Shown here one piece after another: positions 300 to 19,601 of a stretch of 64,000 nt of DNA (positions within the stretch are counted from its first letter, which is position 1; every line of letters starts with the position of its first letter). This stretch comes from Candidatus Polarisedimenticolia bacterium (GTDB taxonomy: Bacteria > Acidobacteriota > Polarisedimenticolia > Gp22-AA2 > AA152). The stretch covers positions 326-64,325 of the forward strand of contig DASTZC010000281.1 in assembly GCA_035764505.1 (NCBI GenBank). Direction: 5' to 3'. The notes under the pieces were generated by a model that was given only the letters and a program-made list of their open reading frames with translations, made no database searches and was not told the origin of the DNA. The position numbers were made by a program, and so were the translations under genes.

Positions 300-1258
300 G
301 CTCCGGCGCGCCGCCGGAGCGGCCGATCGCCGTCGTTGTCATGGGTCCCACCGCTTCCGGGAAGAGCGAGATCGCGACGGCGCTCGCACGCCGTCTCGGG
401 GGCTGGATTCTCAGCGTCGATTCGATGGCGGTCTATCGCGGGCTGGACATCGGCACGTCGAAGCCGCCCGCGGAGGTCCGCCGGGAGATCCCGCACCGCG
501 GGCTGGATCTGGCCGAGCCGGGAGAAGATTACTCGGTCGGAGATTTCGTGCGCGCCGCGGATGCCGCTCTGGAGGAGATGCGCGCCGCCGGAGTGCTGCC
601 GATCCTGGTGGGCGGGAGCGGCCTTTACCTGCGAGGGATCCTGAAGGGGGTGTCGGAGCTGCCGCGCCGCGACGCGGTGGTGCGGCGGCGGCTGCGGGAA
701 CTGGAGGAGGCCGAGGGGACGGAGGCGCTGCACCGGCTGCTGCAGCGGCAGGACCCGGCTTCAGCACGCCGCATCGCCCCGACCGACCGCCAGAGGGTGG
801 CGCGCGCGCTGGAGCTGGCGGCCTCGGGCGTCACGGATGTCGTCGGCAAGCCGCGCGGCGAATGGCTGGGCCCCGATCGATTCCCCAGCGTCAAGATCGG
901 GCTGCGGCGCGGGCGCGAGGATCTGGCGAGCCGGATCCGGGAGCGGGCGGAAGGGTTTCTCGGGGCGGGAATGCTGGAGGAGACGCGCCGTCTGCTGGCT
1001 CGACCCGGTGCGCCGGGAAACGCCCTGAAGGCGCTCGGCTACCGCGAGCTGGCGGCGCACCTGCGCGGGGAGTGCGACCTGCCGGCGGCCCGTGAGGCGA
1101 TGGTTCGGGCGACCCTGCAGTACGCCAAGCGCCAGATGACCTGGTTCCGCAAGGAGCAGGACGTGCGCTGGTTCGACCTGGAGGGCCCGGCCTCCGCGGC
1201 GGCGCAGCGCATCGGCGATTACGTGGCCGAGCGCATCGGAGATACGAGCCGGGGTTAG
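296..1258 (+). CDS. miaA: tRNA dimethylallyltransferase (MiaA)
   Basis: P-loop GPTASGKS is followed by DSMAVYRGLDIGTSKP, which matches MiaA. The in-frame TTG at 296 gives a short N-terminus before the P-loop; the upstream part of ORF 194..1258 is likely not translated. Confidence 0.85.
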   Translation: MSSGAPPERPIAVVVMGPTASGKSEIATALARRLGGWILSVDSMAVYRGLDIGTSKPPAEVRREIPHRGLDLAEPGEDYSVGDFVRAADAALEEMRAAGVLPILVGGSGLYLRGILKGVSELPRRDAVVRRRLRELEEAEGTEALHRLLQRQDPASARRIAPTDRQRVARALELAASGVTDVVGKPRGEWLGPDRFPSVKIGLRRGREDLASRIRERAEGFLGAGMLEETRRLLARPGAPGNALKALGYRELAAHLRGECDLPAAREAMVRATLQYAKRQMTWFRKEQDVRWFDLEGPASAAAQRIGDYVAERIGDTSRG

Positions 1259-1629: not shown

Positions 1630-2217
1630 TTGGGATTCACCGCTGCGAACGTCGTCACCATCGGCCGGATGATTCTGGTCCCCGCCTTCATCATCCTGGT
1701 GGTGTCCAACCAGCCGGGCTGGGCCTTCGGGGTCTTCGCCGCGGCGGGCATCAGCGACGCGCTGGACGGCTTCGTGGCCCGGCGCTTCGGGCGGAGCGCG
1801 CTGGGGGCCTTCCTGGATCCGCTGGCCGACAAGCTCCTGATCACGGCCGCCCTGGTGGTTCTGTCGCTTCCCGACCATCCGGCCAGCTTTCCCGAGTTCA
1901 CCCTGCAGAACCGCTTCCCGATACTCCTGACGATCCTGACGATCAGCCGGGACGTCCTGATCGTTCTGATCGCGCTCGGCATCCATCTCGCCACCGGGCT
2001 CACTCGCTTCCCGCCGACGGTGTACGGCAAGATCACCACGGCGGTACAGGTCGCCACCGTGTCGGTCATCCTGCTCTACAACACCCTCGGGGTGCGCTCC
2101 GAGGTGGTCGTGCCCGGCATGATCCTGCTGACCCTGGGGTGCACGCTGTTCTCGGGGCTGCATTACGTGCCGCATGCGGCGCGGCTGGCAGCCACCGCCT
2201 CGGCTTCCGAGCGCTAG
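1630..2217 (+). CDS. pgsA: CDP-alcohol phosphatidyltransferase (CDP-diacylglycerol-glycerol-3-phosphate 3-phosphatidyltransferase-like)
   Basis: The CDP-OH phosphotransferase signature D-G-x2-AR...G...D-x3-D (ISDALDGFVARRFGRSALGAFLDPLADK) is present, with multiple TM segments and a TTG start. Confidence 0.8.
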   Translation: MGFTAANVVTIGRMILVPAFIILVVSNQPGWAFGVFAAAGISDALDGFVARRFGRSALGAFLDPLADKLLITAALVVLSLPDHPASFPEFTLQNRFPILLTILTISRDVLIVLIALGIHLATGLTRFPPTVYGKITTAVQVATVSVILLYNTLGVRSEVVVPGMILLTLGCTLFSGLHYVPHAARLAATASASER

Positions 2218-2241
2218 CGACACGCCGCTGCAGCGCTGCGA

Positions 2242-3876
2242 TCAGGAGCTCCAGCTCAGCTCGGCCTTGATGTTGATGTTGCGGCGGGGATCGGGAAAGA
2301 GCGCCTCATAGGTGCCGGCCTGCTGGGAGGAGAGGAAAGGAGGAGAGAGCGGCGCCTCGGAAGTGGCGACGACCTCACCCGAAGCATCGGTGAGCGTGAT
2401 CCTGACCTTGATGTCGGCAGCCGGCCCCATCCCGGCGTTGTAGACCGAGCCCTTCACCTTCAGCCTGCCGTCGAGCGTGATTTCGTGGCTGTTCTCCACG
2501 AATTGCAGGTTGGCGCGCGCAATCTCGCGCAGCCGCTCGAGGCGTGGCGCCATCTCGATGGCGCGCGGGTGGCTCTGTCCTTGGGGTGAGTAGACCTCGG
2601 CGCTGGTGGAAAGGATCTTCGTGCCGCTGCCGCCGGTCTCGGCTTCCTCCCGCGGGAGGGGGGAAGCCGCGCCAGACGTGGCCTTCAGGATGGAGGCTTC
2701 CAGCGGCGGCGCGTCGGGTGCCAAACGCGTCTCGCCGTGCGATTGCCGCAGGAAACCCCACAGGGCGATCACCCCAAGAGCGACGATCGGCAGAAGAATC
2801 CAGACCCCCGACCAGGAGCCGGCCCCGGGTGGCATCGCCGCCTCGGGCCTGGCCGGGCGCGCCGGGGGCGTCGGGAGGCCGATGGGCGCGAGCAGCCGGT
2901 CGAGCTCGCGGATCAGCGTATCGTAGTCCTTCGGCCGATCTTCCGGGCGCTTGGCCAGCATCCTTTGGGTCAGCGTGACCAGAGGAACGGGGAGATCGGG
3001 ACTGAACTGCCGCGGCGAGCGGAGCGGCTCGCGCACATGCTTCAGGATGATCGACACGGGAGTGGGGCCGTCGAAGGGGGGACGCCCGGTGACCAGCTCG
3101 TACAGCGTGGCCCCCAGCGAGTAGATGTCGGAGCGCAAATCGGCGGGAGCGCCGGAAGCCTGCTCGGGGGCCAGGTAGTTCGGCGATCCGAGGACCTCTC
3201 CGGTCAGCGTCAGCCCGGAGTCGGCCACGACCATCTTGGCCAGGCCGAAGTCGGTAACCTTGACGACCCCCTCGCGCGTCACCACCAGGTTGCTCGGCTT
3301 GATGTCACGATGAATGATGCCGCGGGCCGCGGCCGCTTTCAGGCCGACCGCCGCCTGGCGGATGAGATCGGACGCCCGCGCCGGGGCGAGCTTCCCTTCT
3401 TCCTTGAGGAGGGCGTCCAGCGGCCGCCCTTCGAGATACTCCATCGCGAAGAAAGGGCGCCCTTCGGCTTCACCGATGTCGTAGATCTGCGTCACATTGG
3501 GATGCGAGAGGGCGGCGACCGCCCGCGCCTCGCGCAGGAAGCGCTCGCAGAACCCCGGCTCCTTGGCCAGCTCCGGCTTGAGGGTCTTCACCGCCACGGC
3601 GCGGTTCAGCCGAACGTCCCAGCCTTGATAGACGATGCCCATTCCGCCGGCGCCGATCAGGCCGCGGATCTCGTAAGGCCCCAGAGTGGCCGGGGCCGCC
3701 GGAAGAGGAGCCGGCTCCGGGAGAGCCGCGCCGCGCGGGGAGTCGATGCGCTGCGTCGCATCGGTCGTGCCGGCGAGCAGCGGAAACTCGCGCCCGCAGG
3801 AGGCGCAGGTTGCCGCACTCCGGGAGGTCGGAAGCTCCTGGGTGCTGCGGCAGTAGGGGCAGCGGATGAGGGCCAT
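2242..3876 (-). CDS. Ser/Thr protein kinase with N-terminal zinc ribbon, Pro-rich linker, one TM segment and an extracytoplasmic C-terminal domain
   Basis: It has CPYCR...CASCG at the N-terminus. Hanks kinase motifs are present: GAGGMGIVY, VAVK, HRDIKPSNL, DFGLAK and APE. Confidence 0.85.
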   Translation of the reverse strand: MALIRCPYCRSTQELPTSRSAATCASCGREFPLLAGTTDATQRIDSPRGAALPEPAPLPAAPATLGPYEIRGLIGAGGMGIVYQGWDVRLNRAVAVKTLKPELAKEPGFCERFLREARAVAALSHPNVTQIYDIGEAEGRPFFAMEYLEGRPLDALLKEEGKLAPARASDLIRQAAVGLKAAAARGIIHRDIKPSNLVVTREGVVKVTDFGLAKMVVADSGLTLTGEVLGSPNYLAPEQASGAPADLRSDIYSLGATLYELVTGRPPFDGPTPVSIILKHVREPLRSPRQFSPDLPVPLVTLTQRMLAKRPEDRPKDYDTLIRELDRLLAPIGLPTPPARPARPEAAMPPGAGSWSGVWILLPIVALGVIALWGFLRQSHGETRLAPDAPPLEASILKATSGAASPLPREEAETGGSGTKILSTSAEVYSPQGQSHPRAIEMAPRLERLREIARANLQFVENSHEITLDGRLKVKGSVYNAGMGPAADIKVRITLTDASGEVVATSEAPLSPPFLSSQQAGTYEALFPDPRRNINIKAELSWSS

Positions 3877-8979: not shown

Positions 8980-9198
8980 CGATCGCAGGTCCTCGGGATG
9001 GAACGCGACCGCCGCGGCAGGAAAGGGGGCTGGTCGTTCACTACCCGGGAAGTATAGTGTCGCCTCCAGGGGGTGTCAACCGTTCCGCGGCGACGGCCCG
9101 GTTCTGATAAGTGATGAGGACACAGTAAGTTCTAACAGTTTCGTCATGGTAGAATCCGGAGCGAACGAGACGACCTGCGAGCGCTCGAAAGGACCAGG

Positions 9199-11614: not shown

Positions 11615-12138
11615 CGCAGGAACGCGGCGACCTGCTCGACCGCCTGCTCCGGCGTGAGGGCCGTCGTGGTGATGTCCAGTTGTTGCGCTTCGAGCATCTG
11701 GTGGCTTTTGAGCGAATCCAGGAAGCGGTCCCAGAAGTCCCCCAGCAGGACGATCCGCGTACGGGGAAGAAGCCCGCTTCGGTTCAGCGCCCAGAGAAAC
11801 GAGAGCTCCGCGAGAGTTCCGGATTTGCCGGACAGGATTATATAGGCGTCGGAAAGCTCTATCAAACGGCGGGTGCGCAGGAACAGGTCCGGCTCGTCGA
11901 GCGCTTCCGAGAGGTACGAGTTCGCCGGTCCGCGCGCGAAGGCCGCGGTGGTCACGCCGACCGAGGTCCCCCCGCCTTCACGGGCGCCGCGGCTCGCCGC
12001 TTCCATCACGCCGCCGTAGCCGCCGTTGACGACGCGCAATCCGGCGCGCGCCAGCAGCCATCCGCACCGCCGCGCCTGCTCGTAGAGGGCCTCTCCTTCC
12101 CGTGGCTCGGAGCTGCCGAACACGGCCACCGACTTCAT
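11611..12138 (-). CDS. LOG family protein (TIGR00730 Rossmann-fold nucleotide-binding/cytokinin riboside 5'-monophosphate phosphoribohydrolase-like)
   Basis: GGYGGVMEA...SGKSGTLAEL motifs are present. The stop overlaps the lepB start by 4 nt. Confidence 0.8.
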   Translation of the reverse strand: MKSVAVFGSSEPREGEALYEQARRCGWLLARAGLRVVNGGYGGVMEAASRGAREGGGTSVGVTTAAFARGPANSYLSEALDEPDLFLRTRRLIELSDAYIILSGKSGTLAELSFLWALNRSGLLPRTRIVLLGDFWDRFLDSLKSHQMLEAQQLDITTTALTPEQAVEQVAAFLR

Positions 12139-17295: not shown

Positions 17296-17745
17296 TCAGG
17301 GGGAAGCGGCCATCTTTGCCTTGGCCTGACTCTCGTACTTCGAAGGACATTTCGCCAGCAGGGTATGGGCCTCGAACGCCTCGCCGCGCATCCTTCCTTC
17401 GACCACGACCTCGGCATTGTCCACGAAGGTGTCCGGAAGCTCCTTGCCGAAGACGACCGGCAGCGTGCGGGTTCCATCGGTCATCACGAACCGCGCTCCG
17501 AGGCGACCGCTGGTCTTGACGATACTTCCCGGAACCACATGTCCGTTCACGCGGAAGTGGGAGTCGAGATCGGAGGGTGGATGGTCGATGAACTCGCCGA
17601 CCGTAAGATAGTAGACCATCGAGCTGCGAAAGCTGAGCCCGACGAGAGCGGTGAAGGCCGCCAGTAAGATGACGATGCAGATGACGATCTTGGGACTGAA
17701 CCGGAGGCGCACCGGGAAGCTCTCCCCGTCCTTTGCAAAATGCAA
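17296..17745 (-). CDS. ccmE: Heme chaperone CcmE, CxxxY variant
   Basis: It has an N-terminal TM anchor and an OB-fold. The C-terminal motif LAKCPSKY replaces the canonical LAKHDENY, so a Cys sits where the heme-binding His is expected. Confidence 0.8.
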   Translation of the reverse strand: MHFAKDGESFPVRLRFSPKIVICIVILLAAFTALVGLSFRSSMVYYLTVGEFIDHPPSDLDSHFRVNGHVVPGSIVKTSGRLGARFVMTDGTRTLPVVFGKELPDTFVDNAEVVVEGRMRGEAFEAHTLLAKCPSKYESQAKAKMAASP

Positions 17746-17829
17746 ATTGATGCTAACCCGAGACTTGCAGGGAAGTCAACCCGCGTAGCGGGGGATCCCG
17801 ATCAACCTGTGCGGCTGCAGAGCCGGGGC

Positions 17830-17857
17830 TTGACAGGCCCGCGAACGAGCCTATATT
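17830..17857 (+). promoter_or_regulatory. sigma70-like promoter (TTGACA, 16-nt spacer, TATATT)
   Basis: A near-consensus -35 and -10 sit in an AT-rich island of an otherwise 70% GC genome. It is on the plus strand, upstream of the hairpin/T-run and greA. Confidence 0.45.
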
Positions 17858-17863
17858 ACAATC

Positions 17864-18001
17864 AGATTTAGTATATATATGTTTTTGGATGCACCTCCTA
17901 CCTTTGCATCGAAAACATGCATATACAGCTCAGGCAGTCTTAAATCCTCCCAAACCCAACAACCCGATCGGGGACCGAAAGGTCCCCCCCTCCTTTTTTT
18001 T
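17864..18001 (+). ncRNA. Candidate ~135-nt small RNA or terminated greA leader transcript
   Basis: The candidate is bounded by the promoter at 17830-17857 and the intrinsic terminator at 17970-18001. The region is AT-rich and holds only a spurious 61-aa ORF. Confidence 0.35.
17970..18001 (+). terminator. Rho-independent terminator (GGGGACC-GAAA-GGTCCCC followed by an 8-T run)
   Basis: A perfect 7-bp GC stem with a GNRA-like loop is followed by CCCTCCTTTTTTTT. On the minus strand no T-run follows the stem, so the orientation is plus. Confidence 0.6.
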
Positions 18002-18110
18002 CTTCACCAATTGCGGCGCACTCGCCTTAAACCTTGAGCCGCAATGCGTTGACATCCCGTGGATCCGATCGTAGACTTCAAAAAATTCGACAAACGCAGG
18101 GAAACCGCGC

Positions 18111-18611
18111 ATGTTCAGGCAGGCCATCGAGCGTCTGGAAAAAGAGCTCCGCGCCTTGGAAAGGGAATTCCGCCACGACCTCCCCCAGGAAATCAAGAAG
18201 GCCCTCGCCATGGGGGACCTGCGCGAGAACGCCGAATACCATGCGGCCCTCGAGCGCCAGAGCTACGTCAAGGCGAAGATGGGGCAGATCAAGAAGCGCC
18301 TCTCGGAGATCGCCATGATCAAGCTCGATTCGCTGCCCAAGGACCGCGTAGGGCTCGGTTCCAGCGTTGTGCTGTTCGATCTCAAGGAGGAGAAGGAGGT
18401 GCACTACGAGCTGGTTTTCGCGGAGGACGCGGACGTCCCTCGCGGGATGATCTCGATCACCTCGCCGATCGGCAAGGGGCTTTCGGGCAAGCGCGAAGGG
18501 GACGAGGTCTCGATCCAGGTCCCCAGCGGCGTGAAGCGCTTCGAGATCGTCTCCTTGAAGACGGTGCACCAGAAGCGGCCGGCGGCCGCCCGGCCCGACG
18601 AGGAGGAATAG
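18111..18611 (+). CDS. greA: Transcription elongation factor GreA
   Basis: The coiled-coil N-terminal domain carries the acidic DLRENAEY motif, followed by an FKBP-like C-terminal domain. Confidence 0.9.
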   Translation: MFRQAIERLEKELRALEREFRHDLPQEIKKALAMGDLRENAEYHAALERQSYVKAKMGQIKKRLSEIAMIKLDSLPKDRVGLGSSVVLFDLKEEKEVHYELVFAEDADVPRGMISITSPIGKGLSGKREGDEVSIQVPSGVKRFEIVSLKTVHQKRPAAARPDEEE

Positions 18612-18617
18612 CGGCCC

Positions 18618-19601
18618 ATGCCCGAGCGCACCGCTACAGGACTCCGGCGGGCGCGCGCGCGCCGCGCCGCTCTGTGCCTCTCGGCGCTGCTCATTGCCGG
18701 GCTTTCGGCCTGTGCCGCGGAGGTCGACGTCGAGAAGCTGTTCGTGCAGTCCAACTCCGACGACTACGAGGAGCGCGTCGAGGCGCGGCAGCGGCTGGCC
18801 GAGCTGATCGAGAGCGGCAGCGTCGAGCCCTTCGCGAAAGGGCTGCAGAGCCCCAACGTCGAGACCCGCGTACAGTCGATCCTCCACCTGCTGGCGATCC
18901 ACACCCCCGAGTCGAAGAAGCCGCTCGTCGGCGAGCTGGAGCTGTCGCGCCGGTTCAACACCTTCTACAACCCGATCCGCCTCGTTCCGGTGTCGACGCC
19001 CAGCGACAGCCGCATCATGGTGGCGCACATCCTGGAGTCGAAGGGAGGCGATCCCAAGGCGGTCGAGATCCTGGCGGACAGCTACGGCAAGGAGCCGGAC
19101 ACCGCCACCCGCGTCGCCACCGTCTACGCCCTGGGGGCCCTGCAGGACAAGGCGGCGGTCCCCGCGCTGCACAAGGCCCTGCGCGATCCCGAGATGGATG
19201 TCGTCCGCGCCGCCCTCGAAGGATTGACGCAGATCCGCACTCCGGGAATCGCGGGCATGCTGATCGAAGGGCTCGCCGACCAGAACGAGACCATCCGCGC
19301 CAACTCGGCCACGGCGCTCTCGTCCTTCGGGGAGCCGGACGCGGCGAAAGCGCTGCTCGACGCGCTGCACAAGGATCCTTCCCCCAAAGTCAGGCTCTCC
19401 GCCGTCGGCGCGCTGCCGAACGCCGCAGGCTACGCGGCATTCAATCCGATCCTCTCCCTCCTGAAAGATCCACACGCGCCCCCCGAGATGAAGGACCAGG
19501 CGGCGACCTCCCTGCAGAGCCTCACCGGACAGGATTTCGGTCAGGACGCCGCCCGGTGGGCGAAGTGGTGGGAGCAGAACAAGACCACCCTGGCCCGGTA
19601 G
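18618..19601 (+). CDS. HEAT/PBS-lyase repeat lipoprotein
   Basis: A signal peptide with lipobox LSAC is followed by repeated VR..A...L HEAT-like units. Confidence 0.65.
   Translation: MPERTATGLRRARARRAALCLSALLIAGLSACAAEVDVEKLFVQSNSDDYEERVEARQRLAELIESGSVEPFAKGLQSPNVETRVQSILHLLAIHTPESKKPLVGELELSRRFNTFYNPIRLVPVSTPSDSRIMVAHILESKGGDPKAVEILADSYGKEPDTATRVATVYALGALQDKAAVPALHKALRDPEMDVVRAALEGLTQIRTPGIAGMLIEGLADQNETIRANSATALSSFGEPDAAKALLDALHKDPSPKVRLSAVGALPNAAGYAAFNPILSLLKDPHAPPEMKDQAATSLQSLTGQDFGQDAARWAKWWEQNKTTLAR

Follow-up and report, generated by a model that had tools for sequence, protein, structure and literature searches.

The question raised by the present locus is whether the DNA between ccmE and greA of an uncultured bacterium holds a leader of greA or a gene in its own right. 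We analysed a stretch of 64,000 nucleotides (64 kb; hereafter the window), whose host is placed among uncultured Acidobacteriota by its GreA homologues and by the genome records carrying them. In the window, ccmE, with ccmF behind it in the ccm operon, is separated from greA by a gap of 365 nt that houses the candidate RNA element (Table 1); downstream of greA lie a HEAT-repeat gene and then an XdhC-like gene. A previous inspection of the letters alone (the sequence-only reading) had noted in this gap an AT-rich island with a promoter, a strong terminator, an inverted repeat and a second promoter-like element, and had proposed either a GraL-like leader RNA of greA or an independent sRNA gene whose transcription diverges from that of the ccm operon. 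The AT-rich island is real, with a GC content of 36-50% between 17800 and 18100 in surroundings of about 65%.

Acidobacteriota rank with the most abundant bacteria of soils. To our knowledge, hardly anything has been learned about RNA regulators in this phylum, for which we are aware of just a couple of candidate motifs in Rfam. As described below, the element is very probably an sRNA gene that is conserved, structured and served by a promoter of its own.

Table 1. Features predicted in the ccmE-greA region of the window
Feature	Position	Strand	Remarks
ccmE	17296..17745	-	Pfam CcmE; gene-caller start 17712; upstream divergent neighbour
Promoter of the divergent ccmE/ccmF operon	17750..17779	-	TTGACT-18-TAGCAT; promoter scan and footprint
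P1, predicted sRNA promoter	17830..17857	+	-35 TTGACA 17830-17835, 16-nt spacer, -10 TATATT 17852-17857
Predicted sRNA transcript	17864..18001	+	about 131-138 nt; predicted +1 A17864; predicted 3' end within the U-run
Hairpin 1	17871..17926	+	long AU-rich stem; MFE fold and covariation
Unpaired C-rich segment	17941..17969	+	UAAAUCCUCCCAAACCCAACAACCCGAUC; core CCUCCCA 17946-17952, putative seed
Hairpin 2	17970..17987	+	terminator or 3'-end hairpin; GGGGACC-GAAA-GGTCCCC; 7-8 bp GC stem, GAAA tetraloop
3' tail	17988..18001	+	C-rich spacer CCCUCC 17988-17993, then U8 17994-18001
Inverted repeat	18010..18045		ATTGCGGC (18010-18017) / GCCGCAAT (18038-18045); outside the conserved unit
P2, predicted promoter of greA	18049..18077	+	-35 TTGACA 18049-18054, 17-nt spacer, -10 TAGACT 18072-18077
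greA	18111..18611	+	166 aa; ATG at 18111; Pfam GreA_GreB_N and GreA_GreB; downstream neighbour

Three footprinted promoters

We compared about 20 related acidobacterial loci, among the matches listed, which were collected from genome and metagenome collections by GreA-guided searches and from exact-protein look-ups, and all of which were fetched through greA. For the analysis of promoter footprints we used the loci whose GreA is 70-90% identical (L002, L083, L163, L165, L167, L170, L172 and L173), leaving out L082 because its 5' end is cut. The ccmE-greA gap was alignable to that of the window in all eight distinct relatives with upstream DNA (8/8).

In comparison with the window, the -35 and -10 elements of P1 were 98% and 94% identical in the eight relatives, with 35% identity in the spacer and 38% in the six bases 3' of the -10. 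At P2, the -35 and -10 elements were 100% and 96% identical, with identity falling to 57% in the spacer and 36% in the greA 5' UTR, and the hexamers of the ccm promoter were 83-98% identical, against 38% in the surrounding spacer. P1 matches the consensus at 11 of 12 positions and is the near-consensus sigma70 promoter (TTGACA-16-TATATT) seen in the sequence-only reading; in the relatives its -10 takes the extended form C-TATATT. The second promoter-like element of that reading, TTGACA-17-TAGACT, was also recovered, although its true site is that of P2 in Table 1 and not about 18044-18072. Promoter-like sites are concentrated in the region, with three in 2 kb against 0.1 expected.

The same arrangement was recognised in more distant homologues, which are preceded by TTGAC-N17-(C)TATATT or TTGAC-N17-TAnATT. 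In the distant clade, TTGACA-17-TGnTAnnnT lies 3' of the sRNA as the greA promoter, and in L087 and L090 the -35 of greA overlaps the U-run of the sRNA. A separate greA promoter downstream of the RNA was kept in every homologue among the loci compared. As judged from these footprints, the region is made up of three putative promoters and one conserved block that is presumably transcribed; three sigma-70-type promoters would thereby be defined in an uncultured lineage.

Boundaries and predicted structure of the RNA

The conserved block starts at 17863/4 (AGAU) and stops just 3' of hairpin 2, so that one boundary coincides with the predicted +1, located 7 nt after the -10 of P1, and the other with the end of hairpin 2. 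Both ends of the RNA are predictions. Transcription would start at the near-consensus sigma-70-type promoter P1 and yield an RNA from 17864 to about 18001. Between these borders the RNA body is 57-100% identical by block in the eight relatives, the stems being 86-100% identical, and the spacer after the hairpin falls to 44%.

The predicted 138-nt transcript folded with z = -4.4 against shuffled sequences. From 5' to 3', the predicted fold comprises a long AU-rich hairpin, a C-rich stretch without structure (core CCUCCCA), a GC-rich hairpin capped by GAAA, and a C-rich tail. In hairpin 1, positions 17871-17886 pair with 17911-17926, the stem is extended by pairing of 17889-17893 with 17905-17909, and the 11-nt apical loop (17894-17904) is C-rich (CCUCCUACCUU). 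Hairpin 2, which 106 nt precede in the predicted transcript, has a stem of 7 bp, six of them G-C, and is 100% identical in the eight close relatives. The pattern of this hairpin (GGGGNNCGAAAGNNCCCC) occurs once, against 0.10 expected.

The C-rich core of the linker was found in every homologue including the short forms described below, as CCUCCCA, CCCGCCA or CCUUCCA, and is the most widely shared element. Across 15 homologues, its predicted probability of being unpaired ranged from 0.54 to 0.99, the value for the window being 0.83.

Homologues in distant relatives and covariation

A covariance model (R1) built from the close relatives detected full-length homologues in a distant clade with GreA of 52-57% identity (L006, L087, L089, L090 and L092), in which the RNA lies immediately 5' of greA in each case; it also detected a variant in L011, whose 5' hairpin is GC-rich. 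Covariance-model searches also detected divergent forms in L085, L175 and L127. The window RNA itself scored 133 bits with R1 and 123 bits with R2. Searches of the remaining approximately 140 acidobacterial greA loci with R2 and R3 gave no match, and three covariance models together with motif searches found no further copy or paralogue in the 64-kb window, where the RNA is single-copy.

Covariation was examined in a combined alignment of 14 sequences (A5), for which RNAalifold gave a consensus of two helices. Standard pairs occupied 97.1% of the cells (22 consensus pairs in 14 sequences), namely 95.7% in hairpin 1 and 100% in hairpin 2, compared with 30-65% in a control in which the 3' partners were slid by 1-3 columns. 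Compensatory double changes were present in 10 of the 22 pairs (7/15 in hairpin 1 and 3/7 in hairpin 2), and the covariation values were reached by none of 500 shuffles. In hairpin 2, the swaps in distant relatives were A-U to G-C, C-G to U-A and G-C to A-U. In L090 and L011 the sequence of the hairpin 1 stem is wholly different, with the pairing retained.

The divergent relatives keep less of the RNA. L085 and L175 have a shorter and different 5' hairpin, followed by the ...CACGACCUCCCAU... core that the window RNA also has and by a canonical hairpin with U7. In L127, CCUCCCA is located within a hairpin loop. The short forms of L004 and L147, about 65 nt long, start at GCAGUCUU, which in the window RNA is the linker; they have only a C-rich 5' end and the terminator, a layout shared with sRNAs made up of a seed and a terminator. 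Since the C-rich stretch and the 3' hairpin are what the divergent relatives have in common, the invariant module, as far as the sequences can tell, is an exposed C-rich stretch followed by a 3' hairpin. With seed and terminator alone, the short forms are 'minimal' variants that occur in nature.

The element might not be an RNA gene at all. Its palindromes might act as DNA operators on the two divergent promoters, of ccm and of greA, or the region might encode a small protein. Hairpin 1 comes close to a palindrome (GTATATATATG...CATATATATAC) and lies between divergent promoters, and the covariance models weakly match it on the minus strand. However, the minus-strand scores were 20-35 bits against 113-158 bits for the plus strand. 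UG occurs at one pair in four sequences, with further G-U pairs elsewhere, and these would be C-A on the opposite strand; together with the scores, they indicate a plus-strand RNA, and on these grounds we discarded both a minus-strand RNA and a DNA palindrome. The replacement of the stem sequence in L090 and L011 with the pairing kept, and the orientation of the promoter and of the terminator and tail, also argue against a DNA site. As for a small protein, the open reading frames overlapping the region are 52 and 61 codons long, but no ORF is conserved across the element. Among the homologues, ORFs change in frame and length through indels, with no conserved start or Shine-Dalgarno sequence, so that we rejected a coding potential and regard the element as non-coding. 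We consider it extremely improbable that this region is an operator or a small-protein gene.

An unusual 3' end

The sequence-only reading had described hairpin 2 and the following T-run as a textbook intrinsic terminator. The hairpin (17970-17987) and the T8 (17994-18001) are where it placed them, and the GC-rich stem-loop of a canonical terminator is present. The T8 is the sole T8/A8 run on either strand of the 64 kb (0.07 expected). However, 'textbook' does not describe the site. In the window, no U-tract lies at the canonical distance of 0-2 nt from the stem, as the 6-nt CCCUCC intervenes, and the eight close homologues lack a U-run. Hairpin and T8 fall barely within the terminator-scan rule, and the terminator-like sites in the window number 25 against about 27 expected, which is the shuffle level.

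In the relatives the spacer after the stem is ACCCCCC or ACCCGCC and is kept as a C-rich sequence. The eight close relatives have ACCCCCC(U) with 0-3 U and no proper U-run, and the distant clade has ACCCGCC followed by U3-5; a U-run directly after the stem was found only in L085 and L175. Hairpin 2, aided by U8 in the genome of the window, would set the 3' end of the RNA. Because most close relatives have no U-run, transcription there may often continue towards greA. The absence of a U-tail in most relatives would also argue against a classical Hfq-type 3' end. The conserved non-canonical signal, a hairpin and then a C-rich tail, bears on how termination takes place in these high-GC genomes.

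Downstream of this tail, the 8-bp inverted repeat of the sequence-only reading is present, but had been over-read. Its left arm lies in a spacer that is unalignable among the relatives, only its right arm shares bases with a clade-specific block located 5' of the P2 -35, and the region folded no better than shuffled sequences (z = -0.70). With neither conservation nor a significant fold, the repeat was rejected as a functional hairpin or operator. An 8-mer (TCAGGCAG) is present in the same sense in the RNA and in codons 2-4 of greA; the two copies cannot pair, and we treat them as a coincidence.

Relationship to greA

In E. coli, an sRNA upstream of greA, GraL, is 37-59 nt long and is transcribed from the P1 and P2 promoters of greA itself (PMC6829880). 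It is produced when transcription terminates, imprecisely and with an efficiency dependent on GreA, within the greA 5' UTR; only about 19 nt precede its hairpin, and no greA promoter is located past the terminator (PMC6829880). The window RNA is similar in being a short RNA that ends at a hairpin, on the same strand as greA and immediately upstream of it, with read-through conceivable.

On this precedent, the RNA could be a cis-acting attenuator, with P1 as a distal promoter of greA from which most transcripts stop at hairpin 2 and the rest reach greA. GreA would possibly tune the termination, the hairpin, C-rich spacer and weak U-run forming a site prone to pausing or backtracking, and this role may coexist with one in trans, as proposed for GraL. 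The RNA immediately precedes greA, on the same strand, in the window, in the eight close and six distant relatives, and in L004, L127 and L147. In L004 and L127 other DNA parts it from ccmE and not from greA, the U-run merges with the -35 of greA in L087 and L090, and read-through is plausible in most close relatives given their lack of a proper U-run. In addition, the RNA was within the ccmE-greA interval in every locus retrieved, a constancy that is partly due to ascertainment, as all loci were fetched via greA, and that leaves room for a local role in cis.

Other observations lead us to consider a cis attenuator unlikely. A strongly footprinted greA promoter is located past the hairpin in every homologue, whereas GraL has none. 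In L085 and L175, a minus-strand gene for a response regulator, convergent to the RNA, lies between the RNA and greA, so that the RNA cannot be a greA leader there, and yet the RNA is kept along with its canonical terminator. Seven loci with the ccmE-greA arrangement (L003, L005, L084, L086, L088, L176 and L177, the last from Candidatus Polarisedimenticolaceae) have a short intergenic region and no RNA. A simple attenuator would also not need a strongly conserved unpaired sequence. Finally, the RNA is unlike GraL in size, being about 135 nt long with a dedicated promoter, and in sequence, no similarity having been found.

A riboswitch or other 5' leader is followed by the gene it regulates with no promoter or gene in between; here the conserved P2 intervenes, as does the gene in L085 and L175, and the architecture of hairpin, linker and hairpin contains no multi-stem aptamer. 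In the light of these comparisons, greA is a transcription unit separate from the upstream RNA and would be transcribed from P2, the analogy with GraL is positional only, and read-through from P1 into greA may occur. The GraL-like leader of the sequence-only reading is accordingly not supported, given the conserved P2 downstream of the hairpin, the length of the RNA and the lack of an Rfam match. Its other proposal, an independent sRNA gene of about 135 nt divergent from the ccm operon, is supported by the promoter footprints, the boundaries, the covariation, the absence of a conserved ORF and the intervening gene in L085 and L175.

Comparison with known RNA families

A scan of Rfam, which the sequence-only reading had suggested as a check, found no family that matches the window element or the 14 homologous loci. 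With Rfam 15, the whole window gave no match at the gathering threshold, the region 17600-18300 gave only two chance matches to miRNAs at E <= 10 (E 5-9), and the 14 homologous loci gave one unrelated match at E <= 1 (E = 0.9), outside the element. In particular, neither the window nor the 14 loci matched 6C, RsaE, cuckoo/CcsR, 6S, Acido-1 or Acido-Lenti-1. Acido-1 (RF01686) and Acido-Lenti-1 (RF01687) are candidate non-coding RNAs from Acidobacteria (PMC2864571); they share the phylum with the window RNA but did not match it or the 14 loci even at permissive E-values. In the literature we found no described acidobacterial sRNA that resembles the window RNA.

The likeness to other sRNAs is one of design. 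The 6C sRNA (B11) of Actinobacteria binds the G-rich ribosome-binding sites of several mRNAs through C-rich loops, without Hfq or ProQ (PMC6486639). It resembles the window RNA in its high-GC host, its own promoter and its conserved unpaired C-rich stretches, and hairpin 1 of the window clade also has a C-rich apical loop (CCUCC/CCCUCC). The two RNAs differ in phylum and genomic context, show no match in sequence or structure, and are built differently, since the universal C-rich element is here a linear linker and not a loop, and the second hairpin has a GAAA loop.

Another comparison is offered by RsaE/RoxS of Firmicutes, which exposes one or more C-rich motifs resembling an anti-Shine-Dalgarno sequence and has a terminator hairpin. 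The CcsR or 'cuckoo' CCUCCUCCC sRNAs of Alphaproteobacteria likewise expose anti-Shine-Dalgarno motifs (PMC4615179, PMC8034643). The window RNA shares with both groups the design of exposed C-rich motif(s) and a terminator hairpin, but its motif is CCUCCCA (with the variants CCCGCC and CCUUCC) and not CCUCCUCCC, it is single-copy and not in tandem, it has no link to a DUF1127 gene, and the taxa are unrelated.

We therefore regard the window RNA, from the alignments and searches above, as a previously undescribed family found in a subset of Acidobacteriota; the family is new, but the kind of regulator is known. It brings a covariation-supported sRNA family with a defined promoter, defined boundaries and a putative seed, which could enter the RNA family databases and serve the annotation of MAGs. 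Among the MAGs that carry it are JAKEFJ01 and GCA_033854255.1, and a contig identical to the window stems from SRR25158454.

Proposed mode of action

The window RNA has the features generally expected of a trans-acting sRNA, namely its own promoter and a 3' hairpin, a fold supported by covariation, and a conserved seed predicted to be single-stranded. Pairing of unpaired C-rich motifs with G-rich ribosome-binding sites is established in high-GC bacteria (PMC6486639). From these features we infer both the mechanism and the nature of the targets. The C-rich stretches would pair with G-rich sites, typically Shine-Dalgarno sequences, of mRNAs encoded elsewhere in the genome, and this pairing would repress the translation or stability of the target mRNAs. 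The stretches available for pairing would be the linker in all forms and, in the window clade, also the hairpin 1 loop and the 3' tail. The full statement, that the element encodes an independent non-coding sRNA acting in trans by base-pairing through its exposed C-rich stretches, has in our view a slightly better than even chance of being correct.

Three observations on the C-rich stretches concern this proposal. Of possible targets, the neighbours greA and ccmE were examined, and the duplex energies of the C-rich region with their translation-initiation regions were at the shuffle level (z from -1.2 to +1.1), which we counted against the main reading. The core of L006 and L089 is CCCGCC, which is not an anti-Shine-Dalgarno sequence and counts against the seed model. 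The C-rich loop of hairpin 1 (CCCUCC, UCCUACC) is confined to the window clade and does not occur in the distant clade, which likewise weighs against this reading.

The same stretches could instead bind a protein. There are at most three exposed, C-rich and G-poor stretches per molecule (loop, linker and 3' tail), which might titrate a protein that binds C-rich RNA or act as a decoy for Rho loading (rut-like). The conserved C-rich tail past the hairpin, which the needs of termination do not explain, would fit such a sponge, and so would the negative result for greA and ccmE as nearby mRNA targets. However, known sponges such as CsrB have many motifs and this RNA has one to three; the short forms of L004 and L147 retain a single C-run and the terminator, and the neighbouring genes include none for a candidate partner protein. 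This reading is one of inference, and we think it very unlikely.

Apart from base-pairing in trans, the tandem of sRNA and greA may form a module that senses GreA, although we find this quite unlikely. RNA polymerase would pause or backtrack at the atypical terminator, with its hairpin, its C-rich spacer of 6-7 nt, its weak or absent U-run and the greA promoter abutting or overlapping it, and GreA would set the outcome; the level of GreA would decide between release of the sRNA and either read-through into greA or occlusion of P2. If so, it would be an acidobacterial autoregulatory loop convergent with E. coli GraL, in which the released RNA would relay the GreA signal in trans to G-rich targets. 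Should the link with greA be functional in any form, the RNA would add a second, independent example of an sRNA that is coupled with a transcript-cleavage factor gene.

Promoters and conserved blocks of the ccmE-greA gap

Among the relatives, the divergent ccmE/ccmF promoter (TTGACT-18-TAGCAT) shows a footprint just as sharp as those of P1, the promoter of the predicted sRNA, and P2, greA's own promoter, so that three conserved promoters of the sigma-70 type lie within the 365-nt gap of this uncultured acidobacterial lineage. Immediately 5' of the P2 -35 hexamer, a block (TAAaCcTTGA...CGCAAtGCG) is kept in the window clade, the close relatives, and is not kept in the distant clade; it could serve as an UP-like element or as the site of a regulator. 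It contains the right arm of the inverted repeat proposed by the sequence-only reading.

Forms of the sRNA and their 3' ends

Loci L004 and L147 carry 65-nt minimal forms of the sRNA, which start with the GCAGUCUU linker, as found in the full sRNA, and have no hairpin 1; their 5' end has a C8 run, and a canonical terminator is also present. Behind the 3' hairpin, and ahead of the U-run where there is one, stands a conserved C-rich element of 6-7 nt (ACCCCCC, ACCCGCC or CCCUCC) that is unexplained by canonical termination; it may provide a third C-rich site for pairing, or signal pausing or termination. Terminator-like sites (hairpin plus U-run) numbered 25 in positions 1-60000 of the window against about 27 expected from shuffled sequence, and so the lineage appears to rely little on canonical intrinsic terminators.

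The 8-mer TCAGGCAG occurs both in the sRNA linker and in greA codons 2-4, and TCAGACAG stands at both equivalent places in L002. Pairing between the two copies was ruled out because they are of the same sense, and the repetition is thus probably a coincidence.

Gene content around greA and other sites

In L085 and L175, the sRNA and greA are separated by an inserted gene for a response regulator that has a zinc-ribbon domain. This gene and the sRNA are convergent, and the terminator of the sRNA, which in these loci has a proper U7, may be shared by the two. In most relatives, greA is followed by an S-methyltransferase gene and then by the HEAT-repeat gene; the S-methyltransferase gene is missing from this place in the window (18611-18618) and in its closest relative, L162. 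Two further promoter-like sites in the window match 11 of the 12 consensus positions each, and no obvious small-RNA-like hairpin was found after either.

Coordinates of the features
Feature	Locus and position	Strand	Remark
Minimal sRNA form	L004 about 2318-2386		directly upstream of greA
Minimal sRNA form	L147 about 842-905		directly upstream of greA
C-rich element	window 17988-17993; L002 2370-2376		equivalents in other loci
ccmE/ccmF promoter	window 17750-17779	minus	
Block upstream of P2	window 18026-18048		
8-mer copies	window 17930-17937; 18115-18122		linker; greA
Response-regulator gene	L085 about 1150-1950	minus	PF00072 + PF13717
Response-regulator gene	L175 697-1401	minus	PF00072 + PF13717
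S-methyltransferase gene	L163, L165, L167, L170, L172, L173, at about 2008-2880		PF02574
Promoter-like site	window 9051-9079	minus	ORF follows
Promoter-like site	window 11837-11865	minus	within coding region
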